A stretch of DNA of 56,222 nucleotides, filler included, from Dugesia japonica (lineage: Eukaryota): NCBI GenBank assembly GCA_001938525.1. It is 5 parts of 5 records of this genome, joined end to end, with 100 filler letters (N's around TTAATTAATTAA, not from the genome) between each part and the next. Parts side by side here need not be neighbours in the genome. Positions count along the whole stretch, not along the records: positions 45,479 to 56,222 come from MQRL01600016.1; 4 more parts are not named here. The stretch is one strand, 5' to 3'. Within the stretch, counting starts at the first letter, position 1. Each line of letters starts with the position of its first letter. The translations under genes and the position numbers were made by a program. Positions 2,989 to 56,148 of this stretch are shown one piece after another. The notes beneath the pieces are model-generated. The model did no database searches and had not been told where the DNA came from. It saw only the letters and a program-made list of their open reading frames with translations.

Positions 2989-3055
2989 GTAAATTTATAA
3001 TTTATTTTTCGAGAAATAAAATTCCACAAAAAAAATGAAGTGTAAATTTTGAATT

Positions 3056-4500
3056 GTACAATTAGAATAATTGCAAAAATAATTATTTTAACCATTGATC
3101 GTATTTCAGATTTCATTTAATTAAAAGCTTCGATCAAAATTTTTTTTTTTTTTAGTTGTCAGTATTTTGCAGTTTTGAAATTTGTCTTCTTCGGGAATTA
3201 ACTTTTTGATTTATTTAAGATTTATTATAATAATGGAACGATTATTGGAATTTATTTTATTTTATTGAATTTTAATTGGTTAATTTATTGATTTTGTTTA
3301 TTGTGAAAATTACATTTTGTGTTATTATTCACTTTTTGAAAAAAATTTCTAACTATTGATCTGTGAATTTAAAAAAATTAAATATTTTCATAATTTCGAA
3401 AATAAATTCAATCAAAAAAAGTTTCAAAAAATTGTTTCTTTTTCAAATATTCATTAAAATAAGAAAAACGTTTCCAAAAAAAACATTTTTTTCAAACTTT
3501 TTTCATCTACGCCTTAGTTTTTATTTTCGTAATTTGGAAAATATTTAATTTTTTTAATTGACTTAATTATTATAAATTACATTGATTTCAGGTTTGTCTT
3601 CTTTAATCGGTAATTCTTAATGTTTTCTCCTGTGAAGTGTGGAAATTTATCTCGTGTCTAGTGTTTTCCATGTTATATGATGTTGTTGTTCTGGTGAGAT
3701 TTTATGTTTGTGTTGAAAATGTTTGAAGACTTCATTTTTCTTTTGTTTGAAATGTTCCTTTAAGTTTCAAAAAAATGTTTCTTTTTAAAATTTTCATTAA
3801 AATAACAAAAACGTTTCCAAAAAAACGTTTTGGTTATTTTAATAAAAATTTTAAAAAGAAACTTTTTTCATCAACGCCTTAGTTTTTATTTTCATAATTT
3901 TAATAATATTTAATTTTTTTAATTGATTTAATTATTATAAATTACATTAATTTCAGGTTTGTCTTCTTTAATCAGTAATTCTTCATGTTTTTTCCTACAT
4001 TTCCGTGTGGAAATGTAACTTGTTTCTAGTTTTTTTCTTGTTATAAGATGTTTTTGTTCTGGTGAGATTTTATGTTTGTGTTGAAAATGTTTGAAGACTT
4101 CACTTTTATTATGTTTGAGATGTTCCTTTATGTTCCTCCTATAAAGCATGTTATTTTATAAGTGATATTGTTCCTATTGGATATATGTCTACCATCACAA
4201 ATGCATTTGGTTTCTGTAAATTTGTGTCTAAAGTTTCTTACGTTTTGAATATTATTCTTGGATTCTGCTTAGTTTTTTTATTATATTTTTTGCATGATTT
4301 CGCTATATTTCTCATTAATAATAAGAAACATGAAGAATTAGTAATTAAAGAATATAAACCTAAAATCAATGTGATTTCATTATAATTAATTAAAATATTT
4401 TTTATCACAATACTAAATCAAAAAGTCGATTCTTAAAAAAGACAAGTCGAAATACTTAACAACAACTAAAAACAATATTTTGATTGAAGCTTTTAATTTA
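3056..4500 (-). mobile_element. Penelope-like element remnant (GIY-YIG endonuclease 3' end, tandemly duplicated, plus an inverted terminal copy), inside intron 2 of the zinc-finger gene
   Basis: ORF 3928-4149 reads RRNIKEHLKHNKSEVFKHFQHKH...RKKHEELLIKEDKPEIN, the C-terminal half of a PLE GIY-YIG domain. A second copy lies at about 3545-3770. Orientation flips at about 4320 (KHEELVIKEYKPKIN on +). Degenerate hammerhead motifs at about 3170-3200 (-) and 4425-4455 (+). Confidence 0.8.
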
Positions 4501-4941
4501 ATGAATTTTTTTTTTAATTGAAATTTTTCTTGACAATAACCTGACAAAAGAAAATAAAAATATATACGAAAATCTTCTGGATCAAATGAAAAAGACTCTT
4601 AATAGAATTTGATTTATTTTTGATACAATATTCGAATATTAATGAAACTTTGTAAATTTACTGTTAAATGTAACCAGAATTAATTGATAANNNNNNNNNN
4701 NNNNTGTGTTAGAATAATAGTGAAATAATTTTTACCAAAAATCATTGGTCAATTGAGAAAAATAAAAATTTAAAATAATCATTTTATTTTTTTTAATATT
4801 AATTTTTTTTTTAATTACGAAAAAATCGAATTTTTTTGTTGTTTGGTTTAAATGTTGATTTTAAATTTGAATAGTTAAAAAAAGTATTTCTTTTTATATT
4901 TTCATTAATTTTGAATTCTATTGAATATGATATTTTTTAAG

Positions 4942-8868: not shown

Positions 8869-9424
8869 AGTGACTTAAAACTTGATTTCGATTATAAAAA
8901 TAAATTGTCTTAAATAATTAATTAATTTAATTTTTTTATTTTATATCATTTCTCAACTATAATCATGTCAATGAACGTGACATAAATTGTTTAAGAAAAG
9001 ATAATTTTGGTGGTCTCAGGATGTTTATTTGAAAGTCAAGGACAATGTTCAATATTCAATCTCATGTCACTCATAACACTAGCCAAAATGGCGTATTAGA
9101 TTTTTGATAAATTTTAGAGAGTTGTCTGGTTTCAGTTGAAAAATTTTCGCAAAAGGTTTTTTTTAACAAAAGTCTCCTACTGGAATATTGATATTTTTAC
9201 AATAATTATTCATTTCTGAAAATGTTTAGTGAGAAAAAATATTACAAACGAGATTTTTAAAATTTGGAAATAAATTACTTGATTTTGAATTTAATATTAA
9301 ATAAGAATACCTTTCTTTAGTAATTATAAGTTTTATTTATTTATTTTTATTTCATGAAAATAAAATGAGTAATAATTGTCTGTTTTCCAAATATTTTCAT
9401 AAATGCAATGTGTTTTTAATATAT

Positions 9425-9750
9425 AACCAAAACAACATCACACATTACATGGAAAACACTAGGAACAGGCTACATTTCTGCACTATATAGAAAAAACATG
9501 AAGAATTACTAATTAAAGAAAAAAATCCTAAAATAAAGATAATTTATAATAATTAAATAATTAAATTTAAATTAAAAATTAACCAATTAAAATTTAGTAA
9601 AAATAAATTTACCCAAAGAAAATTACTATTGTAAGAATAAATATTGATTAAATTAAAGATTCAATTCCTGAAGAAGACTAAGTCGAAATATCGAATTCTT
9701 ATCAAATATCAATAAAAAAACAAAAATTTTTGATCAAAGCTTTTATTTTA
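9425..9750 (+). mobile_element. Penelope-like 3' fragment (GIY-YIG end followed by hammerhead-bearing terminal repeat)
   Basis: RKKHEELLIKEKNPKI-type end, followed about 130 nt later by the shared terminal repeat ending GATCAAAGCTTTTATTTTAAA. Confidence 0.75.
9662..9698 (+). ncRNA. Minimal type I hammerhead ribozyme motif (PLE-associated)
   Basis: CAATTC-CTGAAGA-A-GAC-TAA-GTC-GAAA-TATC-GAATTC: stem I AATTC/GAATT, core CUGAnGA, stem II GAC/GUC, GAAA, AUC cleavage triplet. Confidence 0.75.
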
Positions 9751-10195
9751 AATTAATATATATTTGTATATTTATATAATTTAAACGTTCGTATATATGT
9801 GAATTTCTTTGTGATGCTCGAATTATATAGATTAAATAAATTTGAAAACTTTCGGAAATAATTTAAAAAATTATAATGGTGAAAATAACGATTTTTTCAT
9901 CAGATTCAATAATAGCAATAATAATATTAATGATAATAATAATAATAATAATAATAACGAAATAATTTTAATTTTTTTTTAATAGTGGAAATCAGAAAAA
10001 TTTTAATCTTTTATTTTGAACTGATTTAAATTAATAACCAACAAAATCTCGAAAAGCTAAGAAATATTCGAAAAATAAAAAATATATATTATTCCTTACG
10101 TCTGTATATATGAAAATGTCTCGGTAACATTCAAATTATAAAGGCTAATATAAATTATCAGAGTGCATAAAAGTTATAGAGGTATGAATTTAGAA

Positions 10196-11439: not shown

Positions 11440-11539
11440 NNNNNNNNNNNNNNNNNNNNNNNNNNNNNNNNNNNNNNNNNNNNTTAATTAATTAANNNNN
11501 NNNNNNNNNNNNNNNNNNNNNNNNNNNNNNNNNNNNNNN
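11440..11539. other. Artificial scaffold-concatenation linker
   Basis: 44 N + TTAATTAATTAA (stop codons in all six frames) + 44 N. Identical at 27606-27705, 36659-36758 and 45379-45478. Confidence 0.93.
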
Positions 11540-17311: not shown

Positions 17312-17560
<249 letters not shown>

Positions 17561-25899: not shown

Positions 25900-27605
25900 A
25901 TAGTGGATATATAGTGGAGCTAAAATCGAATATGAAGACTTTAAAGAGGAATCGGAAGAAATAAATAATTTGGTTAAATATAAAGATGAAAAATTGACTA
26001 TAGTAAACAGTTAAGATTGTATTATTAAAATAAAGGAAGATATATTAATAAATATATATTGTAAAGCTTATCCTTACAGTTTGATATTTGATAAAATTGA
26101 CAATGCAAAAAGATTCGGATACAATCAATTAATTAACGTCATTACTCGACCAAACTCTAATATTCTTTCTCAATCGTTTAAACCAGACAACTCTATAGAA
26201 ACATTAAAACTTAAAATATCTTATCAAATATTAACTAAGAATGAAGTAAAATTTAAGGATGAATTATACTTGTCGAATTTAGCTTAATTAGTGATTTATT
26301 TCTTAGAAAATTGTTCGCATATATTTAAAGATTTTAATTAAAAAGACGATTTAAGTTACTTTGCTTTACATGAAAATATAAATAGTGTTATATTTGATCA
26401 AATATTGACAAAAACATTTGGATTAGAAAGAAATCAAAATTTTCGCGGAGAAATGGTTACTATACCGGACTTGCAATTCAAAAGTGTAAGTAAACCTAAA
26501 ATACAAAAACATCAGCAAATCTTCATCTATAGTAGTATTGTTGTACCTATAATTGTAGGAGATGTTAAAGTTCCTCTTTTGAAATCGATATGGATNNNNN
26601 NNNNNNNNNNNNNNNNNNNNNNNNNNNNNNNNNNNNNNNNNNNNNTCCGATATATAGTGGAGCTAAAATCGAATATGAAGACTTTAAAGAGGAATCGGAA
26701 GAAATAAATATTTTGGTTATTAATAAAGATGAAAAATTGACTATAGTAAACAGCTAAGATTGTATTATTAAAATAAAGGAAGATATATTAATAAATATAT
26801 ATTGTAAAGCTTATCCTTACAGTTTGATATTTGATAAAANNNNNNNNNNNNNNAGATTCGGATACAATCAATTAATTAACGTCATTACTCGACCAAACTC
26901 TAATATTCTTTCTCAATCGTTTAAACCAGACAACTCTATAGAAACATTAAAACTTAAAATATCTTATCAAATATTAACTAAGAATGAAGTAAAATTTAAG
27001 GATGAATTATACTTGTCGGATTTAGCTTAATTAGTGATTTATTTCTTAGAAAACTGTTCGCATATATTTAAAGATTTTAATTAAAAAGACGATTTAAGTT
27101 ACTTTGCTTTACATGAAAATTTAAATAGTGTTATATTTGATCAAATATTGACAAAAACATTTGGATTAGAAAGAAATCAAAATTTTCGCGAAGAAATGGT
27201 TACTATACCGGACTTGCAATTCAAAAGTGTAAGTAAACCTAAAATACAAAAACATCAGCAAATGTTCATCTATAGTAGTATTGTTGTACCTATAATTGTA
27301 GGAGATGTTAAAGTTCCTCTTTTGAAATCGATATGGATAGAAAAATATGAAACTGATGAAGTAGTACAAATTATAGTTGAAAATCCAATGTTGTAGCAAA
27401 ACCCATTGCAACAACTTGTATAAACAATGTAGAAATTAATATTCACGATGATAGCGGAAAATTAATCAAGTTTGCAAAAGATTCAAAAACACATTTAACT
27501 TTACATTTTAGAAAAACTAATTTCTAATCCAGATATTATATCATTGTATAGTAACAGCCAAGCAGGTGGAGAATTGCCTTACTTTGTAGAAAAACAGTAT
27601 GGTTC
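25900..27605 (+). mobile_element. Polinton/Maverick remnant: minor capsid (penton)-like gene (duplicated, 743-bp period) and start of the next small ORF
   Basis: QMFIYSSIVVPIIVGDVKVPLLKSIW...NPM / INNVEINIHDDSGKLIKF...THLTLHFRK fits the Polinton minor-capsid pattern (FVYSDI..P.IVGD...PLLR...IEI.I.DD.G..I.F...TLHF). It is followed by SQAGGELPYFVEKQYG (QxGxG..F.G..QxG). In-frame stops present. Confidence 0.75.
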
Positions 27606-28099: not shown

Positions 28100-29075
28100 T
28101 TAAAATAATAGTTTCGATCAAATTAAATTGTTGTTTTATAGATATCCTCTTTCATCTATATTTCTTCATGTTTTCTCCTGTGAAGTGTAGAAATGTAGCC
28201 TGTTTAACTTTCAAACAGAAAGAAAGTAAAGTCTTCAAACACTTTAAACACAAACAAAATTTAACCAGAAAAACATCATAACAAGGGAAACGTTAGAACC
28301 AGGCTACATTTCTACACTTCACAGGAATAAACATGAATAAATATTGATCAAAGAGGATAAACCTAAAATCAGTGTGGTTTATAATAATTATAGTAATTAA
28401 TATAAGCATAAATTAAATTTATTAGAAAAAAATATTTAAAATTTTTAAATTTAATAAGATTTTAAAAATTAATGCTGTTTAAATTTACATTTATATTAAT
28501 TATAGCANNNNNNNNNNNNNNNNNNNNNNNNNNNNNNNNNNNNNNNNNNNNNNNNNNNNNNNNNNNNNNNNNNNNNNNNNNNNNNNNNNNNNNNNNNNNN
28601 NNNNNNNNNNNNNNNNNNNNNNNNNNNNNNNNNNNNNNNNNNNNNNNNNNTATAATTTCTTTTTTTAATTTAATAAAATTAATGTAGTTTATGATGATTA
28701 TAATTAAAATAAACTTAAATTAATAAAAATATTTTAAAACTTTTTAAAGAACAAAATACAATTTGATAATAAAACATTTAAAAATTTAAATTTTATTAGA
28801 ATTTTAAAATTAAATTTGAAATAAAATCTACATTTGAATTTAATTTAAATGTGATAAAAATGATCCAATCAAATTTTAATAAAATACAATTAATTTTGTA
28901 AAAATTTTTTAATATTGATTAAATCTATCAAAAAGAAGAAGACAATAGTCGAAAATTTGAATATCTAAAACAACAATTTAATTTAATCGAATCTTTTATA
29001 TAAGTCAAATCTCAAATGCGATCAATGGTTAAGTTCAACAATTATTCTCGCAATATTTGTAATTGTAAAAAAGAA
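28100..29075. mobile_element. Penelope-like GIY-YIG and terminal-repeat fragments in both orientations
   Basis: ESKVFKHFKHKQN and LIKEDKPKI-like segments; degenerate hammerhead GAAGAAGACAATAGTCGAAA at about 28935-28955; shared tail CGATCAATGGTT...CAACAATTATTCTCGCAAT. Confidence 0.65.
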
Positions 29076-30759: not shown

Positions 30760-31600
30760 GATATTTTTTTATTTTATTGAATTTAAGTGGATAATTTATT
30801 ATTTTGAATTAATTGTTATAATTACATAGATGCTAGATTTCTTTTTAAAATTAATATTACTAGACTTTTCTTTCTGTGAAATGTGTAAATATAGCTCGTG
30901 CATGCTGTATTCCATGTTATATGATGCAGTTCTGATGATATTTTATGAATGTATTTAAAGTGATTGTAAACTCCACTTTAGTTATACTTGAAGTGTTCTT
31001 TTCGCTCAGACAATTCTGTATGCTTCTTTTATATACGTGTCTTTACATAAGTTGCATATTATTTTGAAAAGGAAATTTTTATTGCTTATATGTTTGTCAT
31101 CACTAATGCATTTAGAACTACAAAAGCTTAGTCTTGATTTTTGCATTAAGATGTTAAAGGGTGCTTGCATTATATGATATTATTCTATGATTGTTTTTGA
31201 GTTTAGATTTATGCATTTTATATAATTTGGCTATTTTCCCCATTAAAAATAGATAATTTAATTACAGTATTTGTTTGTTAATTTGTTTCATTTTTATTCA
31301 ATTTTAGATTTGAAGAGATATTTTGATGTAATTTTATTTAGATAAGCATTACTTCAAAATTTATTTTAAATAATTTTACAGAAATTAATTTAATTTCTTC
31401 ATTTGAAGATAGTTATGGTTCTTTCATGTTTAATTATACCACCTTTTTACCTGATGATAGTGTTACTATTCCAAAGTAAATATGTCCATTGTGAAATGTT
31501 TTCATTTAGAACTAGGAAATTAATATTTCACCAAGTTTTTTTTTAAACTAAATGTTATAGGAAAAATAGTGATCTCAATCATCTTGAAAATAACCTGATT
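30760..31600 (-). mobile_element. Older Penelope-like element remnant (RT thumb/linker and GIY-YIG)
   Basis: Minus strand KEHFKYN*SGVYNHFKYIH is homologous to the 3928-4149 ORF. Similarity extends upstream through the CSSKCISDDK linker, which resembles about 4190-4230. Confidence 0.6.
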
Positions 31601-34180
31601 GAAAATAACAATTTAGGCCAATAATAGCGTTAAATTAACGATTTTTTAGTTTTAAGGGAAAATTTGAATCTTCGCCAATAACTCAAAGTTATACGTAAAT
31701 AATATAGATAATACAAAAGAAAATAATATTATAAATTGGTGATAAAGTTTTGCAAAAGAATCTGAAGAATTTATCAAAAATTTTGGCATGGCGACACACT
31801 AAAAATTGCTTTGAAAAATGATGTCAGACATCAATAAATTCATCGTTTTCGACCTGATAGATTCTATAGGTACAAATTTGAATGGCTTTATCATAATTAT
31901 AAAATGAAAAAATCTCATTGCAAAGCCAAAAATTATCCTCCAAGAAAATATCTAGAAAAGTTATTTTCGAAAGAAATGCTACCATTTAAGATTCTGAAAA
32001 TATTATTTATTGCTTTGAAAGTATTACGCAATGTTACACAAACCTAATAGGTGGCTTCAGGAATTGATTTTTCACCGGAAAATTAAATCTAAATATTAGT
32101 ATTATAGGTCATTAAATAAGCCTCAAAATATGTCTTTTATTTTAATACTTTGACTACAACTAATTAATTTATTATTTATTTTTCAAAAAATTAAATGCAA
32201 AATATTTACTTGATTTATAATAATGAACTAAACTTTTTGTCATAACGGTAAGTAAACAAGTATTGATCTTAACTCATTTGTTAATTATTCATTAATGCTG
32301 GTAAAATGTTTTTAATGACTGATAAATATTGATAAAATGTCAAAGAAATTTAACTCGCAATCCAAACAAAATCTATTAAGTAACTTGTTTACATTTCAAA
32401 TACAACATTTGTTAACTTATTTAAATATTACAACGAACAACAATTAAGTTTAAATGATTATTTTAATTCAAATGATTAATACCTTTATTGGTATAATCAT
32501 TTTCATTGCAAAAGGTTATGTATGTTTTATTTCATATCTATTGTCTACAGAAGCCAGTTGTTTAAGCAACATTAAATTAATTGATATCAAAAATCAAAAA
32601 TAAACAAAGAACATAAAAAGCTCATAGCATTTAATCTAAATGACAAGTATTTTTAAGTATCTGCCATTCAATATAAATAACGATATAATGTCTAATTGGT
32701 ACAAATGTTGAGAATAAGTAAATATTTAGTTATAGATACAGAGGTTAGTGAAAATTTGTAACTAGATAATACGGACCTGTTGAACAATTACACTTGGGTC
32801 AATTGCTATGTACACTATTTGGCTTGACTGATGTTTGATCATAAATCAACCAACTTCCAAAATTTAAAATAAAACTGAAAATAGAATAAACGTTTAAAAG
32901 TGTTTACACAAGTACAAGGAACCTACGAATTCGAAAATATAATATAAATCATCGATTACAAAAACCAGACTACTTAAAGCTTTAAAATGATTTAATTTTA
33001 TAGATTAATTTTTTAAACTGGTTTTAATGAACGCAAACTTGAAATTTAAAAACTTCAATTTATTTGGATAATGAAAAAGATATTATAGAAATTAATAAAT
33101 ACACTGAATCTTTACTTAAATTCGTTTAAATCAAATGGTAATTAAAATTATATTTTTTATGATCGCGTATTCGCTTTTACGTCATTGATTGATAAAACAA
33201 TCAAGAAAAAAGTCAAAAGAAATATAAACACAGTAACTGAATGTGAAAAAAATAGTTAATATTAAAGTAAAGGATGAATTTATCACCAACGAAGATATTG
33301 AAATTANTATTTCAATAAAAAACTATTCGTCACAAATAAGCAGTTTAGAAAATCCGAAAAACATTAACTCAAGAACATTTTCCGATAAATATTGCAAATA
33401 AAATTGTTTTAATAATCAATGCGTACTCTGTAAGTGGTTTTTATATTCAAAGTACTTAAATTCAGTTTTTTGTGGACCTCGTCTATTTTTTTGTCGTAGT
33501 GTTCTTGATAAATTTCAAAATATAAAAGGGATAATAAATTGGCACCCTTTATCATTAATTTTAAAACGGTATGATTTGAGTAATATTTATATTCAAAATA
33601 TTGAAAAATGGTTAAAACTTGGGACTATACAAAAGCACAATTAAATATTAATAAAATATTTAATAGAACGACAATGATTTTAGATAAATTTATAAAATTG
33701 ATAGTTCTGATCAATCAGACGAGGACAGTTGCGGCTTTAGATGAAAATTGGTTATACGAATAAATATTTTTTTCAGTCATCGTTCTTTCATTGGAATGCC
33801 ATTTTAAATGTTGACTCACTCAAATCAATCTTAAGATAATTTTTTTAGTTAAATTAACATTCAAATAGTTAACTGAAACTGAATTGAAAGAACAGATTAT
33901 CAATGTTCGCTGTAAAGTCATAGAATATACAATTTTTCTGGTAGAAAAATTTCCAATTTTTACATTGTCAAATACATTTTAAATAATTCAGATTCAAGAA
34001 ATGAAGGAAGTATTATGATTCTATGGTAAGATAATATAACCAATCAATAAATACTCGAATAAGAGAAATTCAAATTTGTGCGAAATTTTTTTGTAACAAG
34101 TATAGACATTGATAATTTTAATTTTCAATTATTTCGGTGAAATGTTATTTGAGAAAATTAATCGTTAAAATATTTTTTTA

Positions 34181-34412
34181 AAATAAAAGCTTCGGTCAAA
34201 ATTTTGTTTTTTTGGTGTTTGATAACAATTCGATATTTCGACTTTGTCTTCGAAAAAGTCAATTGCTGACGCAGACAAAGTCAAAATATCGAATTGTTAT
34301 CAAATACAAAAAAAAACAAAATTTTGATGGAAGCTTTATTTTAAATGAAATCTGAAAAACGATCATTGGTTACGTCCAACAATTATTCTTTCAATAATTG
34401 CAATCGTTAAAA
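34181..34412. mobile_element. Inverted (back-to-back) pair of PLE terminal repeats with two damaged hammerhead motifs
   Basis: About 34181-34251 is the reverse complement of about 34271-34345. The + copy reads CAATTG-CTGACGC-AGACAAAGTC-AAAA-TATC-GAATTG. Confidence 0.8.
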
Positions 34413-35293: not shown

Positions 35294-35688
35294 TAAACTT
35301 TTGAAAATTGAACTTGTTTAAATAAAATTTATAATAATTGTAATTCAATTTATTTAAACTGAATATTTTGATGAACACAAGAATCTAAATGTTTTATTTA
35401 CTTATAAATGAAGCAAAACACAAAACTATTACTTAAGTAATTGTTTAGGCAAATTTGACTTATGTGATAAATTAGGGATCTTTACAAAAATGACTCACGT
35501 AACTTTTGTTTTATATATATCATTTAAAATTAAAGCTTCGATCAAAATTTTAGTTTGTTTATTGATATATGATAACAATAAAAAACAAAAATTTTGATCA
35601 AAGCTCTAATTTTAAATAAAATATATATATATATAAGTAGATAAATAACACCCTTTTTTCACTCAGGGTTTGAAATTTTAGATGTGCG

Positions 35689-35800
35689 ATTTTGAGTGAA
35701 AAATTTTGAGTGAAAGATTTTGAGTGAAAGATTTTGAGTGAAAAATTTTGAGTGAAAGATTTTGAGTGAAAAATTTTAGATGTAAGATTTTGAGTGAAAA
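35689..35800. repeat. 14-bp minisatellite (TTTTGAGTGAAA[A/G]A)n, about 7-8 copies
   Basis: Directly visible; followed by three AAAGTGC(C/T)AT units at about 35884-35916. Confidence 0.92.
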
Positions 35801-38351
35801 ATCACGAATGAAAAATCTAGAACGAGAAACATGCAACATGAAAAATGTTAAATTGAAGTGGAGATATTTAAGAGGAATAACATAAAGTGCCATCAAAGTG
35901 CTATTAAAGTGCTATAGAAAATGGTCTTTGAATNNNNNNNNNNNNNNNNNNNNNNNNNNNNNNNNNNNNNNNNNNNNNNNNNNNNNNNNNNNNNNNNNNN
36001 NNNNNNNNNNNNNNNNNNNNNNNNNNNNNNNNNNNNNNNNNNNNNNNNNNNNNNNNNNNNNNNNNNNNNNNNNNNNNNNNNNNNNNNNNNNNNNNNNNNN
36101 NNNNNNCCTTAAATAAAGCATTAAGAGATTTAAATTTAAAATCTCAAAGAAAAAAATATCACAGATTAAAATATTATTATTATGAAAAAACAAATACATT
36201 TATAAAGAATCAATATGGAAATTATTTTTTTAATGTCAAAACAAAAAAGTTTGAGTTAATTCCAGAACAGGAAACAAAAATAACATTAACAGAAAAAAGG
36301 AATGAAATGAATAATGAGAAAGTTCCAATAAAAAGAAAAAGAATAGTTAATGCAAGGGCTGGTGGTAAAATATATTATGAAGATGAGATAGAAAAATCAT
36401 TAAATTCTTATAAAACACCTTAATAAAATGGAAGGTTTAATGGAAGATATAAAACAAGACAAAGAGTTTAGAAAAGAATTAAGTGAAGAATATAAAATGG
36501 TAGTTCATTCTTCTGCAAAAGAAAAAGATGTTATATTAAGAAATATTTTTCCACAATTTAAACAACTTAAATAATTTGCAGAATTAGCTGGAGATACAAT
36601 TTATGATTTAAAAATGGAAAATAGTGTATTAAAAGAAGAGATAGATAGTATGAATGCANNNNNNNNNNNNNNNNNNNNNNNNNNNNNNNNNNNNNNNNNN
36701 NNTTAATTAATTAANNNNNNNNNNNNNNNNNNNNNNNNNNNNNNNNNNNNNNNNNNNNAATACTTTTAATTTCTTTTAATCCTTCAAACTCTTTTAATAC
36801 TTTTAAATGTCTTTGATAACTGTTAACTTCTTTTAAAATTCCTTTAAAACTTTTTAAAATTCTTTGGTTTCTTTAAACTTCTTTACACATTCTTTAAATT
36901 TCTTTTTAACTTTATTCAACTTCTGATTTTTGCTTTTATCTTTTTGTCTATATAGTTCCGTTCTGGCTCCATAATTCTGACTTTGCTTTTCCTGTCAATT
37001 TTTGACAACTTCCATTTATTTCCTTTTTCTTATTCTAATTTCAGACATCATTTTCTAATTAAACTCTTGAATTTTTGTTACTCCCTACCTTTCTTTTTAT
37101 TATATTCTTTTTCTTTTCATCCTTCCGCTGAGAAATAATATAATATTTTAATTAATTAATTAATANNNNNNNNNNNNNNNNNNNNNNNNNNNNNNNNNNN
37201 NNNNNNNNNNNNNNNTTCCGTTCTGGCTCCATAATTCTGACTTTGCTTTTCCTGTCAATTTTTGACAACTTCCATTTATTTCCTTTTTCACCTCTTATGT
37301 ATCAAAATTCTGATTTTCATTTTTACTCCCCACATATTTCTCTTATACTAATTTCAGACATCATTTTCTAATTAAACTCTTGAATTTTTGTTACTCCCTA
37401 TCTCTCTTTTTATTATATTCTTTTTCTTTTCATCCTTCCGCTGAGAAATAATATAATATTTTAATTAATTAATTAATATTTTGTTTCTTTAGATTTACTC
37501 AAGATTTTAATGTTTCAAATACACTCATACATACACACGCATACACATACTTAAAATTACATTTAGAATACCTATTTACATTAGTTTTAATTATTTTATT
37601 TTTTTCACATTTATTAATTAGTTTTATTATTTTATTGGAATGTAATTTTACTCAATTTAACACAAACCTACCACTTTGAACATTGCCAAGTGTAAGCCCA
37701 AGGAAATATTTATTGTGTTTCTTTTAAATATTTTTTAAATTCAAAAACCATATCACGATTATTTTAAACTCGAATATATTAAAGATTTCTAAAAAACCCA
37801 TTTCCACCACTGCTGTATCATATCGGAAAAACTTCTAAATGCCGTGATACTATTTATATTTCTTTGTAAATGACTTCTTTTTTCGAGGTATTTTAATATT
37901 TTGAAAATTCTGTTTTGAATGTTAGAAAGAGACAAAAGTTAATATTGATTTTCACATAATTCATATTTTGAAATTGCAGAATTTTGACAACAATTTATTT
38001 TAAAGGATTTGAAGAACAAATATCTAAATTTTATTCTGAAAAAATTCATTAAATATATTAATATAACATAAATTTTAGATGTATTAATTTTGAAATTTTT
38101 CAAAGCGTATTTAGTTTTTTTTTATTTATGCATAAATTAATTAAATTAATAATATCTAATATTAGCTCTGAAGCAAGTAATTCAAAAAACCGTAAGTTTT
38201 CTTAGTTTTCAAACCTGCTTTTGCTTGCATTTTTACAGAAAATATATTTATAATTTATTGATTAAATATTTTACAAATTTTTAAAATCAGTTGATAATTT
38301 TTTATTACATTTAAAATTATTTTATTTATTCATTTATTTCTATAAATCTAG

Positions 38352-40699: not shown

Positions 40700-41343
40700 G
40701 TAAGTTTGTTTTCTTGATAATATTAATGAAATTAAAAATTAAATANAATGTAATTTTAACATTAATTAAATTATAGTTAATAATTTATTATTTGCTTTTT
40801 AAAGCACTTTGGTGTTAAGTTATTCATATTTTATTATCTGAAAATTTCTAGACTACTATTGTAGAGAATTAAACGGTATACTTAAATTTGATTTATTACA
40901 AAAAATATGCTAAATAGAAGGTATTATTTGTTAAAAGTTGATTTTATTAAGTCATTAATTTAGANGCTAAATTGTAATATTTTGTTATTCTTATCTGTTT
41001 TGTTACTGTTTGTCACTTTTATTTCTTTGTGATAATCATCAACATTTTATTTGATAATTATTATTTATTTTTTAAAATTCATTTTTATGCGTTGCTTTAG
41101 CTTAAAACTAAGTTTTTATTACAGGTTTTTGCAGNNNNNNNNNNNNNNNNNNNNNNNNNNNNNNNNNNNNNNNNNNNNNNNNNNTTAGAAGCTAAATTGT
41201 AATATTTTGTTATTCTTATCTGTTTTGTTACTGTTTGTCACTTTTATTTCTTTGTGATCATCATCAACATTTTATTTGATAATTGTTATTTATTTTTTAA
41301 AATTCATTTTTATGCGTTGCTTTAGCTTAAAACTAAGTTTTTA

Positions 41344-41606
41344 TTACAGGTTTTTGCAGAAATATATTTAAACTATTTCAAAATATATTTAAAATAATAG
41401 TCTTGTAAAATGTTCGAAATATAAGAAAATCAAATATTCCAATATTCATATATTTAAATAAAATTATTTAAATTAATTTAAATAAAATTATTTAAATTAA
41501 TTTAAATAAAATTATTTAAATTAATTTAAATTAAATTATTTAAATAAATTATTGTTTTGCAATATATTTTGAAACTTTTTAAATATATTTCTGCAAGAAC
41601 TTGTAA
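41344..41606. mobile_element. Foldback/MITE-like element with terminal inverted repeats and an internal 24-bp AT tandem
   Basis: TTACAGGTTTTTGCAGAAATATATTT matches the reverse complement of AAATATATTTCTGCAAGAACTTGTAA at 24/26. Internal (AAATAAAATTATTTAAATTAATTT) about 3 copies. Confidence 0.7.
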
Positions 41607-41729
41607 AGTAAAATCCAATAGATTAGTTTTCAAAATTAAAAAAATTCATAATAACTGAAACAAGAATTCCAAAAATCCATTTTATTGGTCAATGTCAAAC
41701 AAATCATAAATGTTTGCTATTGGTTTAAA

Positions 41730-43900
41730 TAGCCTTATAAGTACTCGGCATATGAGAAAAAAAGTTCTGGTTAAGGTGGAAATTCAACAATAGGATTTTC
41801 AAGTAAAAGACGAGGTTGTTATGTCTAGTTAAAAATAAAACTGCATGAAAAATTAATTAAGTCGGTACAGTGTTATTCTAAGTCATTTCTTGTGAATTTT
41901 ATTGAAAGGATACCATCGTAATTGTTAGTTTTCGACGCTTCAAAGATTTTTTAGAGAAATAATAGCATGTTTTAAGGTAAGATTCATTAAAAAATAATTA
42001 AAATTAATTTTATTTATATGATTTTTAATTAATAATTTATAAAAGAGAAATTCTTTGGCTCGTCTTGACATCCCCTTTGACATTTCATAAAAAAACCACG
42101 CATGGCCCTAGATATGAAATTAGATATGAAAATAGATATAACTGTGAAATTAGCAAGTCTCTGCAATGATTTTTATGTGCAAACGTAATACGTAATAGGT
42201 TGGCTTCTGTGAGTCATCTGGCATAATTTAGATTATCTGTTTGGCTACACTGTAGAAATAGTGTGTATTGACTTGAAGAATGTCCTAACTGCGCAGTTGA
42301 ACATGCTTTCATACAACATTACTGATCTGTGCTGAGNNNNNNNNNNNNNNNNNNNNNNNNNNNNNNNNNNNNNNNNNNNNNNNNNNTAAGTACTCGGCAT
42401 ATGAGAAAAAAAGTTCTGGTTAAGGTGGAAATTCAACAATAGGATTTTCAAGTAAAAGACTAGGTTGTTATGTCTAGTTAAAAATAAAACTGCGTGAAAC
42501 ATTAATTAAGTCGGTACAGTGTTATTCCAAGTCATTTCTTGTGAATTTTATTGAAAGGATACCATCGTAATTGTTAGTTTTCGACGCTTCAAAGATTTTT
42601 TTAGAGAAATAATAGCATGTTTTAAGGTAAGATTTATTAAAAAATAATTAAAATTAATTTTATTTATATGATTTTTAATTAATAATTTATAAAAGAGAAA
42701 TTCTTTTGCTCGTCTTGACATCCCCTTTGACATTTGATAAAAAACCATGCAGGGCCATAGATATGAAATTAGATATGAAAATAGATATAACTGTGAAATT
42801 AGCAAGTCTCTGCCATGATTTTGATGTGCAAACGTAATACTAGGCTGGCTTCTGTGAGTCATCTGGCATAATTTAGATAATCTGGTTGGCTACATGGTAG
42901 AAATAGTGTATTGACTTGAAGAATGTCCTAACTGCGCAGTTGAACATGCTTTCATACAACATTACTGATCTGTGCTGAGCTCTTTACAGACATCATCAGG
43001 AATATCAACAACNNNNNNNNNNNNNNNNNNNNNNNNNNNNNNNNNNNNNNNNNNNNNNNNNNNNNNNNNNNNNNNNNNNNNNNNNNNNNNNNNNNNCAAG
43101 TCCTGTCATTTGTCCACCACCAACATCTGAAAAATATTTTCTTAGTGGAAATTCATTGGTGTGTAGTTCACAAACAAACCACTTTAATGGTATCCCCAGT
43201 TGTTACTCTATTTTTCTTAATAAACCATTGTTCTTATCAGTGTTAATGTTTTTTTCCATCACTTAGTATTGCTATCTGTAACATGATCAACATATTTCTT
43301 GTCTGATAAGGAAACTATAACATAGTGCTCCTCCTTCATACTTCTATGACAAATTCTCTCGTCCACTAGATCCATATCCCGTTTTCCATCAAACCAAATA
43401 CACGTTAGTTTCTTAATTTCATTACTGTGCTACAGAATCTCTTGATCTCCANNNNNNNNNNNNNNNNNNNNNNNNNNNNNNNNNNNNNNNNNNNNNNNNN
43501 NNNNNNNNNNNNNNNNNNNNNNNNNNNNNNNNNNNNNNNNNAGAACATGCTATAATCACTGTCCATGTTTTTTTAAAACACTTACATGTGCATACATCAA
43601 ACAACTTTTCTAATTATTAAACTTTATCTTGAAATTCTGCAGATGACCCTTTTTTCAATGGATTAGTCAAGGATAAGTCAAATAACTCGCTTCACTTGAA
43701 CCACAATACTGCTAAAACAAATTGAAAGAATACTTGCTTTATTATAAAACTCTTTCACTTTGTTAGCAATAACTATTGTTCGATTATGTGGTCATGACAA
43801 CTTTTTTATGCAGGTAAAACAAATAACATCTGACAATGTCTAACAGGTTAGTATTTGATTTCTAGGTAGATCAGATGGATGGCAAAAAGTGCCTGCTTTG
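41730..43900 (-). mobile_element. C/DxxH-type DDE transposase remnant (hAT-related), 3' part duplicated
   Basis: CIWFDGKRD...KEEHYVIVS...YVDHV; NTDKNNGLLRKIE*QLGIPLKWFVCELHTNEFPLRKYF; ELSTDQ; YAR*LTEASLVLRL; GPAWFFIK. About 41740-42336 repeats at about 42390-42979. Confidence 0.7.
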
Positions 43901-46233: not shown

Positions 46234-46930
46234 ATGGATATTATTATACAAAGTTATACAATCAAATGACGTTATATTAACGTCTGAAGAAGAGGATAAC
46301 TTAGAAGAAATAGGAAAAAAAATTGGAAAATGTAAACGTTTTTTTTTGAAAATGAAAATTTACAAATAAACACAGTTGAAAAAGATAAATTTATTGATAG
46401 CATCAAATTAAATCCTTTCTTCGGCCTATTAGTTATGATGGGTGTCAATCAAGACGAGAACATACCACTTGTGTATTTATGGTCAGAAATGAATGGCAGT
46501 GCATTTTATAAAGCGGGAATATGAAGAGATTGTTTCAAATTTAAATTGCATCACTTGAGTTTTGATGAAAAAGAAATGCGATCACAATGTCGACATAGTG
46601 ATAAGTTGGCTCCTATTAGAGACGTATTCAAGTTAATAAAAAACGATTTCCGGGCTATATAACTCCGTGAGAATGTACAAAAATCGATGGAATGTTTATT
46701 TTATTCAAAGGAAGATGTCCATTCAAAGTTTTTATAAACGAAAAACCTGATAAGTATGGTATTTTATTGCGTGCTCTATTTAATTCTTGGAAGATATACA
46801 TTATAACGATATAACCATATGCTAGTAAGGTGAATTATCAAATAAAGCATTGGATGTAGTGAGTAGATCAGTTGATCCAATTAAAAATATATCAAGAAAT
46901 GTTACAATGGATCGGTATTACAAGGTTTCT
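46234..46930 (+). mobile_element. piggyBac transposase remnant
   Basis: FFGLLVMMGV...LWS; LSFDEK...DKLAPIRDVF; IDGMFILFKGRCPFKVFINEKPDKYGI; RNVTMDRYY. Confidence 0.88.
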
Positions 46931-47932: not shown

Positions 47933-48254
47933 GTCAGAAGAAATGCAAATTTTTCCTATCACAATGAATGGTTCCAATACTATATCGTCTAATTATCAAC
48001 CATCTGGTGCAACTATTTCGGAAAATGGGNNNNNNNNNNNNNNNNNNNNNNNNNNNNNNNNNNNNNNNNNNNNNNNNNNNNNNNNNNNNNNNNNNNNNNN
48101 NNNNNNNNNNNNNNNNNNNNNNNNNNNTTCTGGAATCAATAGAAATTCCAGTTCAATGTCAAAATCTAGTAAATCTCATTCGGTTGTTGGAGATACCATA
48201 AAAGAATGTCTTCATTTATGTTTGAAATGTTTTAGAACTATTTTAAATAATCAG
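47933..48254 (+). CDS. FMNL: FMNL/FRL formin, GBD exon (contains an N gap)
   Basis: Ends IKECLHLCLKCFRTILNNQ|GT, compared with FMNL DDVHVCIMCLRAIMNYQ. In frame with the exon at 50778. Confidence 0.75.
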
Positions 48255-49316: not shown

Positions 49317-49479
49317 TTATTGTGTACTAAACAGTTTTCCAGATTAACAAAAAACCTGTCTCTTCTAATTTAATATGATAACAAATTTCATTAATTTATT
49401 TATTTTAATTTTTAATTTCTTTCAGTCATACATTAATAAAAAATTATTTTTATTGTAATGATTTTTTGTGTAATTCCAT

Positions 49480-49685
49480 TAAAATAAAAGCTTCAATCAA
49501 TTTTTTAAGAAAAGTCAATTCCTGGCGAAGACAAAGTCGAAATATCGAATTGTTATCAAATACCAAAAAAAAACAAAATTTTGATTGAAGTTTATATTTT
49601 AAATAAATTATTTTAAAGGAATTCTGAGAAACGATCAATAGTTATGTCCAACAATTATTCTCGCAATAATTGCAATTGTAAAAGA
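49480..49685 (+). mobile_element. PLE terminal repeat with a single-mutation hammerhead (49516-49552)
   Basis: CAATTC-CTGGCGA-AGACAAAGTC-GAAA-TATC-GAATTG; the core A6 position is G. Confidence 0.75.
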
Positions 49686-49979
49686 AAGTCGAGTTGTCCA
49701 AATAAAAAACCACGTCTACGTGCATATAGAACACATCACGAGAAAATAAAAAGTTTTAATTATATATGTTTATTGTAACTAACAATTATAAATAATGCAG
49801 TTTATGAATATTTTAAGTCGTCTTATACTCGAAACAAAAATTTTTTATTCTAAGCAATCTCGCGACATCTCTAGGTATCCGGATCGCCATGTTGAAGGGC
49901 CCAAGTTTAAATACTCGAGTTTATTTTTAAATAATATTAAAAACTGATTTAATTTGATTTCGATTGGAAAAGTGTGTTT

Positions 49980-50430
49980 ACGGTCAATCATGTGATGAGA
50001 GTTTTAAAATGATGGATGTGGTTGATTGTCTAAAGAATAAATGTGAAGTGTTTGGAGTGGTATACTTTCTAAAGCGACATTCTTTCGATGGTTTCAAAAA
50101 TTCTGTTCCGAAGATTTCGATATAGAAAATAAACCTCGCAGAGTAAAATCTATTCACATTGGCGGCATTTTAAAGGCAATGATAAAAATCATCCACAGCA
50201 AACGTCTGAATCAATTAATCATTATTCGTCACATTTATAAGTTTGATATAGTTTCCAAGCTAGACAGTTGGATGCCGCACAAAATAAGTGACAAAACCTA
50301 ATGGGACTGATATACTTGTGTGTTTTGCTGATTATTTCTCAGGACAATGACACTTTTTTCAATTCTCATTGCCACTAGTGATGAAAATGAATAATACACA
50401 ATAATGTAATTAGTAAAATACCGTGGTACA
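49980..50430 (+). mobile_element. mariner transposase remnant
   Basis: FRWFQKFCSEDFDIENKPR; SKLDSWMPHKIS (WVPHEL); IATSDE. Confidence 0.75.
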
Positions 50431-50777: not shown

Positions 50778-50854
50778 AAAGGATGTCAAATGGCTTTCGA
50801 ATATAAAGATACTATAAACGTGATAACTATGTGCCTTGTTCACCCAAGTTACCA
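50778..50854 (+). CDS. FMNL: FMNL/FRL formin, internal exon
   Basis: AG/GT-bounded KGCQMAFEYKDTINVITMCLVHPSY, compared with [24 protein letters not shown]. Phase 2 matches the next exon. Confidence 0.8.
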
Positions 50855-51559
50855 GTTAGTAAATTATAATACTTATTTACTTATGTTTATATTAATTCAT
50901 TATTTTCTCGTCATTCACTCTAATTAACTTCAAATAATATCGATTCTATTATGTTTTCTATAATTTCAAATTTTTCTTATTTTTGAAATTGTTTGATCCG
51001 AAAATCTAATTTTTATTTTTCAAGTATTAAATAAAATTAAAATCAATAACTTATTCCTAAAGATCAAATTAATAATTTCCTAAACCCTAATAAATGATGA
51101 ATCCTTACAATTTTATAATCTCTTAGATGATATTAGATTTATTTAGGAAAGATTACCTTTAAAAAATGATTTATAAAAATAAATGTTAAAAATTGATATG
51201 ACATTTCAACGCTTGGTTAATATAATTGATAGAAACTGTCCACCGTATTAAAAATACTAAACTTTAGAATATATAATACTTTTACAAATACATAGTATAT
51301 GTATCCTCAATAAGTAGGTTACAAATACTATAATCTGGCACAGAGAGTTAAGATTTATCACCAAATATTTAATTGAANNNNNNNNNNNNNNNNNNNNNNN
51401 NNNNNNNNNNNNNNNNNNNNNNNNNNNNNNNNNNNNNNNNNNNNNNNNNNNNNNNNNNNNNNNNNNNNNNNAAAAATAACATTCAATTAATGAAACTGAT
51501 ACATGTTTGATAATGAAATATTGGGATAGTACACTGATAGCTAATTTTGAAAAATATAT

Positions 51560-52610
51560 GTGTATTTGCACTTTAATCGATTATTTGCTGGATTTTAACT
51601 ATATGAAAGAATGTATTTGAAGAAATATTAGTGAAATAATTTCAATTAGATAAATTTTATGTATATATAATTTATTCAATTTTGAATTTGTTGGTTTAAA
51701 TAGTAAAAAGAATGACTGGTAAAGCTGCAGAGATGATATTTGTAAGATACCGCTTTCAAATGAAAACTCATGATATTTGTAGGCTTATCACATATTATTG
51801 GTAGAAGATCAAAATAAATAATTCCTTTAAAATCCCACCAGACAGAGAGCATCACTTTTTTTATGAATATCGGCGTGCATCATCACTTGCATTTCATATT
51901 TTAAAAATTCCAATTTTTTTATCACAAATTATAAGTCGCTTAAAAAATTTATCATTTACTTGACGTTTCAGAAGCAAATCACAGATGCCATTTCAATGTA
52001 GTGGATTTCGTTCTTTACAAAGGTGAGATACCCATATATTGAGCTTTGAAACAAAACCTAGCCGTTTCACGTGATTACAAATGGTTGAATTCGAGAAATT
52101 TATTATTATAGCAATATCTGGTGTTGTGATTTGGAGGTTCACTTCAATCAATTTATTTTCTCTTCATTAACTTCAATGGGTTTTCCTGAACTTGGTGGGT
52201 TTTCAACATCGAAATTTCCCGAACGAAATATTTGGAACTAGTTTTGACATTTGCGTTTGGTCAGGACATCTTTTCCATAAATGTCACAATTTCTTTCTCA
52301 ATTGAATCGCATTTTTACCTTTTCGGTAATAAAACAATAATATATGTCTAAATTGCAATTTTTCAATATTCATTTCAAATATGCCACCTAAAAGAATATT
52401 TGATATATTAAAACATTCATTTAATATAAAAGCTTTGATCAAAATTTTGGTTTTATTTATTGATATTGGATAACAATTCGATATTTCGACCTTGTCTTCG
52501 TCAGGAATTGACTTTTTTTTTTAAATATCAATGTTAAAATGAATGAATATTAAAATAGGAAGAAAATATACACTTGAAAACAACGAAATTACTTTCCGAA
52601 CAGCCTAATA
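51560..52610 (-). mobile_element. mariner element remnant with 5' TIR, interrupted by a PLE fragment
   Basis: TIR TATTAGGCTGTTCGGAAAGTAATTTCGTT; QFRHILLFYYRKGK; RKCQN*FQIFRSGNFDVENPPSSGKP. Confidence 0.8.
52474..52510 (-). ncRNA. Minimal type I hammerhead ribozyme motif, intact core
   Basis: Minus strand CAATTC-CTGACGA-A-GAC-AAG-GTC-GAAA-TATC-GAATTG: 6-bp stem I, CUGAnGA, 3-bp stem II, GAAA, palindromic AUAU in place of stem III, AUC cleavage site. Confidence 0.8.
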
Positions 52611-54237
52611 ATTTAATTCCATTGGGAAATAATATTTCTTTATTCCAGCATTTAGTAACATACATAAAATTGTAAACTGTGTCTGAAGACATTAAATTGA
52701 TTGGCGTTAATGCAGATTTTCAACAAAACGATAAAGAAATATTGAAGAATTGTCCTAAAGGCTTAGACAAATGGATTTTGTTATGTAATTATAGTGTTAT
52801 AACAATATAACTCCAAATTCTAATAAATTTCATTAAATACATTTGCACGATTGTGTAAGTTGATGTGAATTCTTGTGTTTCTCTATATGGAATATATTTA
52901 TTAAAGTAAAATAAATTATGAACACTTTCAAGCACAAATTTTTGAAAACAATAAATACTATAGATACACAGAAAAGATAACATTGCTGTTATTAATGTCA
53001 ATTTGAAAAAAACTAATGCAATCTTTGAGCTAATAAAGAGATTTTAAAGTTGCCCTCTATGTATCAACAGTTTGGTAGGTGGTTTAAATTATGGTATATG
53101 TGCTTGAAGGTATTAAAGCTTAAAATGGATCAAGAAATTGTTCAATAATATAAATAATGGGAAGTTGACATTAAAAAGAATGATTCAATTGTGACTTATT
53201 TATAGGCAGCACGTGATTTTACACAAAATATTCTTGTTGGGTCATTTGCGACCGATATTTGTTTAAATTGTAATATATCAGTGTATAATTGTATTAAATC
53301 GGTGTTTCGTAAACATTTGATGTTTAAGATTCATTATAGTTAATTTTAAAATTTTAATGTATGATCATAAATTGTGGAAATAATTATATTATTATAGTGT
53401 GTTGTATGCATGCTATTCGATGATGAAATACAAAGGCGCAAGAAAAATAAGAAATAATTTTATTTCATGGTTTCAAAGATATTTTCACAATTAAATTTTC
53501 AAATTAATGTGTAATTTTTAAGTCCAACATACGTTGAAGTCGCAAATGTTAAATATTTTAGAAGTACCGATATAAATAATTTTGCGATTAAACTACATCA
53601 ATTTACTTTTAGATCTAGTCTAATGGATTTCATTTGTTGGGAAATAATATTATTAATTTACAAGATCTTCAAACTCTTATATTAGCCAATACCTGCCTTT
53701 CGTGGAGCATCTTTTATTTCTAAGATATTATCTTATCATTTCCTATTTATCAATGTTTCTCAACCAAAAACACATAGCGAGCTAGTAAAATATATATTTC
53801 CTTCGTGGGACCACTAAAAAATTTCACAAAGGCAAATATATTTCATCTGCTAATAAATCCATTTATTTTGTTTGTAGAAAATCGCTAACGATTTCTCCTT
53901 TTTGATTTACAGTGAATATGAAGTTTTATGTATGTTAAGTTCAACTTTACTAAAAAGTGACGAATTGATAATCTTTTTCTTCTTATTAGAACTCTTGTTC
54001 AAATATTTATCCAACAATTAAATTTTAAAATCGAATTCTCGTTTTTAAATTATGTTTTTTATAAATTAAATTTCAAAATCTGTTTAACAAAATTATCAAT
54101 ATTTAAACCTTTATGAGTTAAATTTAGTTGAATCTTAAAATAAATTTTTAAATAAATATTTAAAAACAATGGTCTTTAAAAAATTGAGAATAATCCTTCA
54201 TACAAATCCTCATAAAATAGATAATCAATGATCTAAT

Positions 54238-54385
54238 GCAGGGGTTCTCGGTCGTGGAGATGTGTAGATACATGAAAGGGGTTCCGGGAGCTCAGCTAAT
54301 TTTATTACTGAAAAGTTATTATGATAAGGGTGGGGTGTTCCAAATTTTTCGTAAAGGTGTCGTCATCTAAAAAATGTTTCTTGTA
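54238..54385. mobile_element. Possible hAT-Charlie/Buster-type MITE
   Basis: Starts CAGGGGTTCTC (a typical TIR) and is locally GC-rich; the right end is degenerate. Confidence 0.35.
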
Positions 54386-55224
54386 ATACATTTTTCTAAT
54401 AAAATAAAATCACAAATAACAATAATTTGAATTAAATTAAAAAGTTTTTAAATATTTAGTTTAAAAGTTTTTGTTTATTAACAAAAGCATAATAATTGTT
54501 AAGTATATTTCGCGAACTACTAATTTTTTTTTCTTTAAACAAATTAGAAAATTCTGAATCCTTTATCAAGTTTTATTAATATAATATATCTTCTAAATTC
54601 CATCCTAATTTTTATTTCTAGACACGTAAATTTCAAATTAACTAAATAATTATCTATCATATCTCTTCAATACTTAATAAAAATATTTACTTACGATTTA
54701 CTCATTAAAAAAGGGACCAGATTTAGACATACTTAATTCGGGACCCTATTGGTCGAGTTGTGACCAATAAAGTAACTCAGAATTCTGTACTGTCTCGAAA
54801 AAATACGGTCATTATATTAATATAAATTTTTAGAAAATATTCTTACAAATAATTACACTTTGATTATAATAACGAATAGAAATGACACCTAATTAACAAT
54901 AATTTCTGAATTACGACTTCAGTGTTAAAAATTTAAAGATATTACAAATTATTATTAATAAAATGCAAAATAATAAAAGAAAATACTGAATTAAGTCAAT
55001 TTTAACACCCGTTTTTTAAAAAATATTTANNNNNNNNNNNNNNNNNNNNNNNNNNNNNNNNNNNNNNNNNNNNNNNNNNNNNNNNNNAAAAATTCCTTAC
55101 AATTATATATTGTAGTAGTTATCTTTATATCTGCAATAAGAAACTTTAAAAAATTGTCACTTGAACACATTGAACACATCGGTCTTAAATTTAATATTGA
55201 ATGTAATTGAATTTCATTTTTCAG

Positions 55225-56148
55225 AACTAAGAGTTTGGTACTTGATCTATTGTCTGCCGTGTGTCTAATTGAAGGAGGGCATGAAAGAGTATTAAAAGCT
55301 TTTGATTTGTTCAAAGTAATGACTAGGGAAGAACATCGGTTTGATACGTTAATGTATTTTTATAGGCATCATGAAACATTACCTCTTGATGATTATAATA
55401 TTGATTATGCGGTTTATTGTGTTACTAATTATTTTGAATTTAACTTTAATTATAGGTATCAAATATGCAATTTATCAATATTATAGTTCATTCAGTAGAA
55501 AATATAAATCTCAGAGTTTACCTACAATATGAATTTACTTTACTTGGTCTTGATAGTTTCTTAAAAGTAAATGATAATTAAATACTAATCTAAAACATCT
55601 TTCTAAATAGAAATTACAAGAACGTCCAGGGGATCGTTTGAACAGACAAGTGGATGCTTATTTAGATAATTTGGTGGATTGTAGTGTTTTATTGGAAGAT
55701 GCTGAAGCTAAGGAAGCTTATATCGCTGAATGTGAACGATTAGAAAAAGATATCAGTACACTTCAAGAACAGTTTACTCTGCTAGAAGCAGAAAAAGCGA
55801 GAAAAATTAAAGAATCTGAAGATCGTGTGCGTAAAGCCGAAAAGGAATTAGAAAAAGCTCAAGTATAGAATTATACTTCTCAAATTCTATACTATCTTAA
55901 ATTTATAGAATCGAGAAGACGAATTATCTTTGCTCGTCGAATCTCTTAGATCTAAAATTCGTGATATTAATGTTAATCTCTCAGATAGAGAAAGTGATAT
56001 GAAACGAGAAATTGAAGACTTGCACGACCAATTAAAGAAACTTCATCCTGTAGTAATTCAGAATGGCAACAATAATGTTAAAAAGAAACCAGCGGTTCCC
56101 ATACGTCAATCTAGTAATGATGTTAAGTCAATAAATGAAATTGAAAAA
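55225..56148 (+). CDS. FMNL: FMNL/FRL formin FH3 and coiled-coil exons (55225-55411, 55456-55566, 55611-55862, 55909-56148); gene continues past the window
   Basis: [27 protein letters not shown]...[33 protein letters not shown]...[23 protein letters not shown] closely follows FMNL1-3. Introns of 44, 44 and 46 nt, all GT-AG, keep the frame. Confidence 0.93.

Follow-up and report, generated by a model that had tools for sequence, protein, structure and literature searches.

What does a minimal hammerhead motif with an intact core do on the minus strand of a planarian locus that likely lies inside an intron of a formin-like (FMNL-like) gene: is it a working ribozyme, or a relic of a mobile element? 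The motif was analysed within a stretch of 56,222 nt from Dugesia japonica, hereafter the window, which consists of five pieces separated by four scaffold spacers (at 11440, 27606, 36659 and 45379). The minimal hammerheads of Penelope-like elements (PLEs) cut poorly alone and were dispensable for insertion in vitro (PMC4209133, PMC11167929). To these the family described below contributes an especially small member in which the palindrome hints at selection, together with a cleanly nested insertion. We consider it likely that the motif is a PLE terminal-repeat hammerhead and that the focal copy, 133 bp of gene-less end-piece within an older mariner transposon, is probably inert.

The hammerhead motif and its copies

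The 37 bases of the motif read CAATTC CTGACGA A GAC AAG GTC GAAA TA TC GAATTG on the minus strand (52474-52510; Table 1) and match the published minimal type I hammerhead consensus at every position (PMC4209133, Fig. S3). Like the consensus, the focal copy has CUGANGA followed by an extra base, GAAA and NUH, with the G10.1-C11.1 pair in a helix II of 3 bp (GAC/GUC) that is kept in the four best copies, and a palindromic 15.2-16.2 (here AUAU) permitting a dimeric helix III. With all consensus positions matched and both stems perfect, the intact core claimed by the first-pass annotation is borne out, and the motif can be described as a minimal hammerhead sequence with predicted self-cutting.

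A descriptor comprising the core, helix II, the palindrome and a stem I of at least 3 bp matched the window twice (52474-52510 and 9662-9698) and matched none of 200 Markov-simulated windows. An Rfam scan of the window at E<=10 returned six weak, unrelated matches and no hammerhead, and a pattern scan of viral contigs returned no match. Pattern matches at 11 loci of metagenome contigs were rejected as chance, none having stem I, the tail or PLE homology; thus, the core and stem II alone are not diagnostic.

In structure predictions, hammerhead stems I and II form the best fold of the 37 bases alone (-4.6 kcal/mol), whereas adding 3 to 70 nt of the native flank puts the hammerhead 3.9-5.0 kcal/mol above a competing hairpin, and its pair probability is near 0 with at least 10 nt of flank. 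The 4-base palindrome is predicted to form no stable duplex alone (+1.6 kcal/mol). We also considered the competing hairpin as a conserved switch and rejected this idea, as the AAUU/A17 variant would break the hairpin.

Family sequence is present at all eight places listed by the first-pass annotation, which had spread them over four scaffolds; they do lie on several scaffolds, namely three of the five pieces. The stem II loop varies as had been noted (TAA at 9662, AAA at 34260 and 49516, AAG at 52474) while GAC/GTC is kept. Only two of the eight copies (52474 and 9662) have an intact core, and the outer stem I pair of copy 9662 is mismatched, which leaves 52474 as the sole copy combining a perfect core with perfect stems. 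Copy 49516 carries A6>G, copy 34260 carries A9>C and G12>A and has a broken 2.1 pair, and the other four are truncated or decayed, including 28935-28955 (+), which has an AAUU palindrome and a long tail. Two further, tail-only arms form a fold-back (35509-35627). Among the 10 aligned units, two classes of 3' ends are seen, four with a long tail (an extra ~65 nt) and six short.

Among the papers listed by our searches of the literature on Penelope, hammerheads and planarians, we saw none that describes this family, which Repbase or Dfam may hold. On sequence criteria, it appears to be a previously undescribed family of a well-known animal ribozyme kind, and the trait by which it is distinguished is a stem-loop II of 9 nt.

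Table 1. Positions of the focal motif, its insertion and host, and related loci in the window
Feature	Position	Strand	Remarks
Stem I	52510-52505 / 52479-52474	-	6 bp
CUGACGA core	52504-52498	-	
Extra A after CUGACGA	52497	-	
Stem II	52496-52488	-	3 bp and 3-nt loop
GAAA core	52487-52484	-	
Palindrome AUAU	52484-52481	-	
C17	52480	-	
Predicted cut	between 52480 and 52479	-	
Whole 133-bp insertion	52414-52546	-	short inverted stub plus filler, then A-run, hammerhead and ~60 nt of repeat downstream; lacks a PLE ORF
Target-site duplication, upstream copy TTTTAATAT	52547-52555	-	9 bp
Target-site duplication, downstream copy TTTTAATAT	52405-52413	-	9 bp
Exact inverted copy (9 nt) of the insertion's own 3' end (52414-52422)	52537-52545	+	short, AT-rich, weak alone
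Decayed mariner transposon	51760-52608	-	ATG at 52373; Pfam HTH_48 E=5.9e-05, just under cut-off; reading frames
FMNL-like exon downstream of host intron	55225-55400	+	Formin-like protein 1, E=1.4e-14, from chain residue 242
Likely preceding FMNL exon	50778-50854	+	AG/GT ends, matching phase; would make intron 50855-55224
Head-to-head insertion	34160-34412		inverted truncated copy 34165-34252 (-) and forward long-tail copy 34253-34401 (+)
Forward copy (A6>G) with long tail	49473-49687	+	~35-nt inverted stub
Fold-back of two tail-only arms	35509-35627		in TA repeat
GIY-YIG C-terminal remnant 9432-9529, ~110-nt spacer, intact-core hammerhead 9662-9698, short tail	9417-9757	+	E=0.003
Tandem GIY-YIG remnants 3952-4264 and 3581-3763 upstream of decayed hammerhead 3170-3200, long tail	3043-4264	-	E 4e-9 to 1e-4
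Decayed hammerhead 4425-4455 with a very short GIY-YIG end	4302-4512	+	back to back with the minus-strand element
GIY-YIG remnant 28210-28388 and inverted piece 28147-28203, then N gap, hammerhead locus	28147-29072	+	E=1e-6
Longest PLE ORF remnant	30837-31479	-	post-RT-core region through GIY-YIG, stops inside; E=3.4e-13 (P0003), 4.9e-11 (P0006)

Penelope derivation and the insertion into mariner

Self-comparison of the window identified a second repeat upstream of copies 3170, 4425, 9662 and 28935, on the same strand as each, and a 75-residue open piece of it retrieved five proteins, none of which bears a name. Three of these (P0003, P0005 and P0006) match five window regions at E<=4e-6, against a single match at E=0.35 in the reversed-window control; the best-piece matches at this level lie at 3581-3763, 3952-4264, 28210-28388 and 30837-31479. 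The very short GIY-YIG end at 4302-4512 matches the other remnants at the DNA level (E 1e-10 to 1e-14), and tblastn alone gives E=0.68 (4323-4376). In sum, GIY-YIG remnants matching a full reverse transcriptase (RT) plus GIY-YIG protein lie 5' of four of the eight copies, on the same strand, which upholds the Penelope derivation proposed earlier, and the focal copy has no ORF. Moreover, the order endonuclease end, spacer, hammerhead and tail is that of the PLE 3' end (PMC4209133). The window showed no element of full length with a terminal repeat at either end; every ORF remnant in it is broken, and no hammerhead follows the remnant at 30837-31479. Among 14 window fragments searched against Pfam, only two mariner pieces were recognised (HTH_48), the GIY-YIG and FMNL pieces being missed.

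P0006, the closest full relative, is an intact RT plus GIY-YIG protein (window counterparts 31009-31100 (-) and 4160-4230 (-)) that unites DKT and a C-x3-C-x-C-x5-C linker with an intact CCHH endonuclease. The Hydra clade is described as having DKT and CxCX5C without CCHH (PMC8557442). With its Cys-rich linker before GIY-YIG and its DKT, P0006 probably falls outside the Penelope/Poseidon clade and may be Nematis-like or intermediate. An ATG-led frame, M-V-x-x-N-N-Y-S-R-N-x-C-N-C-K, is seen in the long tails at 49640-49690, 34365-34412 and 29020-29075 (+); it may represent the first codons of the element's ORF, and it has no match to the predicted start of P0006.

The focal insertion is bordered by a 9-bp AT-rich duplication, the like of which chance gave at 44 of 3000 window positions drawn at random, and its 9-nt inverted stub is likely the remnant of an inverted 5'-truncated copy. 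It sits in the 5' UTR of a decayed mariner, between the ATG and the element start, which we take to be the terminal-repeat-like sequence near 52608; repetitive depth stops near 52611. In the DNA run (X2), family depth is limited to 52408-52517, and 11 contigs among the joints listed connect mariner sequence across the insert, from 52408-52415 to 52550, skipping 134-141 bases; an exact empty site would skip 142, and these contigs are diverged mariner copies whose intervening letters are not given. With its own duplication and such empty-site-like joints in other mariner copies, the focal copy supports the earlier proposal that the ribozyme-bearing end also spreads without the ORF. A second mariner remnant was noted at 49950-50400 (+; HTH_48 E=0.019), and 53560-53651 (-) resembles a mariner start with its flank.

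The same architecture recurs elsewhere in the window. Two of the four ORF-less loci tested are bordered by direct repeats (9 and 11 bp), the other two being not clear: the 11-bp repeat (34160 and 34402; chance 16 of 3000) borders the head-to-head insertion, no clear target duplication was found at 49473-49687, and the direct repeat at the fold-back is a TA run. Inverted 5' pieces are present at all four ORF-less loci (arms of 9, ~35, ~60 and ~88 nt) and in four RNA reads of run X18 that stem from another locus. Duplications of about 8-10 bp in AT-rich DNA, and an inverted 5'-truncated copy with an optional tail, are thus both represented, and inverted 5' copies, the optional tail and 8-10 bp duplications have all been described for PLEs (PMC3846280, PMC8557442). 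One fold-back arm (35579) begins just past the predicted cut, 2 nt to its 3' side, but one such instance could be due to chance. A 14-bp tandem array (35645-35840) adjoins the fold-back, and a 275-bp palindrome lies at 41339-41613.

As to the host gene, the first-pass annotation placed the focal copy antisense within an FMNL intron. A plus-strand FMNL-like exon was indeed matched, and splice signals and phase suggest the intron position: in addition to the candidate preceding exon in Table 1, another upstream candidate, ending at 48254, has GT/AG ends and a compatible phase, while the upstream candidates searched alone had no match in Pfam or the PDB. The focal copy likely lies within an FMNL-like intron, antisense to the gene.

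Abundance, RNA reads and signs of selection

We compared 52300-52640 with four sequencing runs, X2 (DNA) and three RNA runs from oligo-dT and cDNA libraries, using reads filtered at 80% likeness. In X2, 13,816 contigs match this stretch and the summed depth over 52408-52517 exceeds that of the mariner flanks ~1000-fold, a figure that reflects depth and not copy number; both support the high copy number that had been claimed. Matching records are far fewer in the RNA runs (802 of 13.6 million, 69 of 11.6 million and 20 of 10.5 million), and 97-100% of the matching RNA reads continue unlike the focal locus and therefore derive from other copies. In all three RNA runs, the unique flank 52612-52640 has zero depth. 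The RNA-seq ends that the first-pass annotation suggested seeking at the cut site do not pile up there or at any other place in these three Illumina cDNA runs, a library type insensitive to such ends, and DNA depth shows no rise from the 5' to the 3' side of the cut. Read strands in X19 (~377 versus 204) were given no weight, as library strandedness is not stated.

Evidence for selection on the hammerhead is mixed. The variant figures concern 40 of the 94 variants, those listed, against a reference that had been picked because its core is intact. Seven variants within the 37-mer reach at least 10% in X19: the outer stem I base, N7, two loop bases, 15.2 and 16.2, and H17 (C to A). Six of these seven occupy the 8 consensus-tolerated positions (p=8e-5; 0.005 when linked changes count as one). 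The changes that turn AUAU into AAUU have comparable frequencies (79 of 513 reads and 68 of 504), and the changes at 15.2 and 16.2, both present in window copy 28935, would together keep a palindrome. On the other side, the first-pass annotation looked to greater conservation of the core than of the flanks, which neither run supports significantly (0/11 versus 16/85 positions in X19, p=0.12; 0/11 versus 7/85 in X2, p=0.41). Two of the three common 37-mer variants in X2 are not tolerated, a stem I change (19% of depth) and C11.1>U (17%), with no visible compensation for either, and G12>A was found in 10 of 49 reads of X22. No compensatory change in stem I or II was observed among the window copies or the 40 of 94 variants listed.

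Variants at 52448, 52456 and 52477 make up 19-68% of X2 DNA depth and are nearly absent from the RNA reads, pointing either to a DNA-abundant silent subfamily or to a strain difference.

Proposed origin, rival readings and related systems

The element itself likely inserted the focal end-piece at an AT-rich site, using its endonuclease and its reverse transcriptase. By analogy with known elements (PMC11167929, PMC3846280), the PLE protein would nick AT-rich DNA and prime reverse transcription within its RNA; starts ~60 or ~125 nt past the hammerhead would yield the two 3'-end classes, copying back through the whole hammerhead followed by an early stop would leave a gene-less piece, and priming of the second strand would create the inverted stub. 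Because the focal copy spans the cut site, the RNA that served as its template would have either stayed uncut or been re-joined. The motif of the parent elements likely cuts no more than slowly, as a palindrome dimer or with the help of the element protein. The focal copy itself, having no same-strand partner and lying in antisense position, is probably inert, and its intact core gives no evident function.

The three least-decayed ORF-less forward copies (34260, 49516 and 52474) all start at an A-run within ~10 nt of stem I, which may mark where the element's RNA has its 5' end. The same A-run starts, seen also in both arms of the four X18 reads, would suit a non-autonomous, SINE-like element with fixed ends and its own start at the A-run, copied in trans by the PLE protein, as would the 2,499 of 13,816 contigs at least 99% alike to the focal stretch. 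We regard this reading as rather unlikely: four of the eight copies extend upstream into the spacer and GIY-YIG, there are two 3'-end classes and inverted arms of different lengths, and a common start would also be expected of the parent element's RNA if its 5' end lay there. Family-wide, moreover, starts look mixed, the loose-end consensus in X2 at 52517 having an agreement of 0.47 and partly resembling the spacer. The variable arms also weigh against a MITE-like DNA element carrying the hammerhead as incidental cargo: its terminal inverted repeats would be of fixed length, and although the focal insertion does show a 9-nt inverted repeat within a 9-bp direct repeat, no two loci have arms of the same length and the sequence adjoins GIY-YIG remnants on their 3' side, so we give this explanation next to no credence.

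A retrozyme of the non-LTR type, making circular RNA from tandem hammerhead repeats, resembles the family in that animal retrozymes are short, non-coding repeats with type I hammerheads (PMC7229834) and derive from PLE terminal repeats (bioRxiv 10.64898/2026.07.22.740005), and one contig, among 15 of the 24 joints listed, steps back 108 bases as a tandem unit would. However, none of the 10 window units has a second hammerhead in tandem on its strand, copies that occur in pairs face head-to-head, such that a transcript of both would anneal to its own antisense, and the motif is minimal and not of the canonical form of retrozymes (PMC7229834), which makes this reading very unlikely. Finally, it is extremely improbable that the intronic copy is retained as a working ribozyme acting on FMNL or on a local antisense transcript. 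It is indeed the one copy of the eight with both core and stems perfect, but intactness needs no selection in a young, abundant subfamily, and the antisense orientation, the silent unique flank and the predicted loss of the hammerhead fold within its native flanks all argue against such a role.

The preferred reading, a PLE end-piece, agrees with several described systems. The minimal hammerheads of metazoan PLE pLTRs share CUGANGA with the extra base, G10.1-C11.1, GAAA, the palindromic 15.2-16.2, NUH and the lack of loop 3; they too lie 3' of GIY-YIG remnants, mostly as single dispersed copies with some opposite-strand pairs (PMC4209133). Their shortest stem-loop II among 56 rows of Fig. S3 is 11 nt, compared with 9 nt (3 bp and a 3-nt loop) here, the 3-bp helix itself standing at the lower bound of sizes in that figure, and the 6-bp stem I is at the long end of their range; the present sequence family is absent from those 56 rows, the planarian entry being a different motif (PMC4209133).

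In Anolis, the protein of the Poseidon element PAc cuts AT-rich DNA on both strands, with two internal RT starts and an uncut RNA template, and the lizard PLE hammerhead cuts only with the protein present (PMC11167929). The AT-rich target, the two 3'-end classes and a hammerhead upstream of the RT start are shared, and for PAc RNA-seq ends at the cut site are likewise absent and the template uncut; the tail is ~65 nt here versus 30-40 nt in PAc. Inverted and solo pLTRs of Penelope in Adineta vaga similarly combine a head-to-head inverted 5'-truncated copy, an optional tail at one end and 8-10 bp duplications, whereas the units here span 110-250 bp, have no ORF between the arms and are seemingly far more abundant (PMC3846280).

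More tentatively, a very abundant PLE family may keep a hammerhead that ranks among the smallest in nature (3-bp helix II, 3-nt loop), is selected in transcribed subfamilies and swaps AUAU for AAUU, its short copies recording two-strand priming on uncut RNA from the RNA 5' end. We hold this wider proposal to be doubtful; if true, it would offer a tractable case in which to study how PLE hammerheads act in the living animal.

Elsewhere in the window, near-identical tandem duplicates (96-98%) split by 50-N gaps occur at 25906-27338, 41738-42979 and 40960-41359 and are probably assembly duplications of alleles. Decayed frames at 46400-46920 (+) resemble a piggyBac-type transposase, and we take an open frame at 17312-17560 (-) to resemble the first RNA-binding domain of poly(A)-binding protein.
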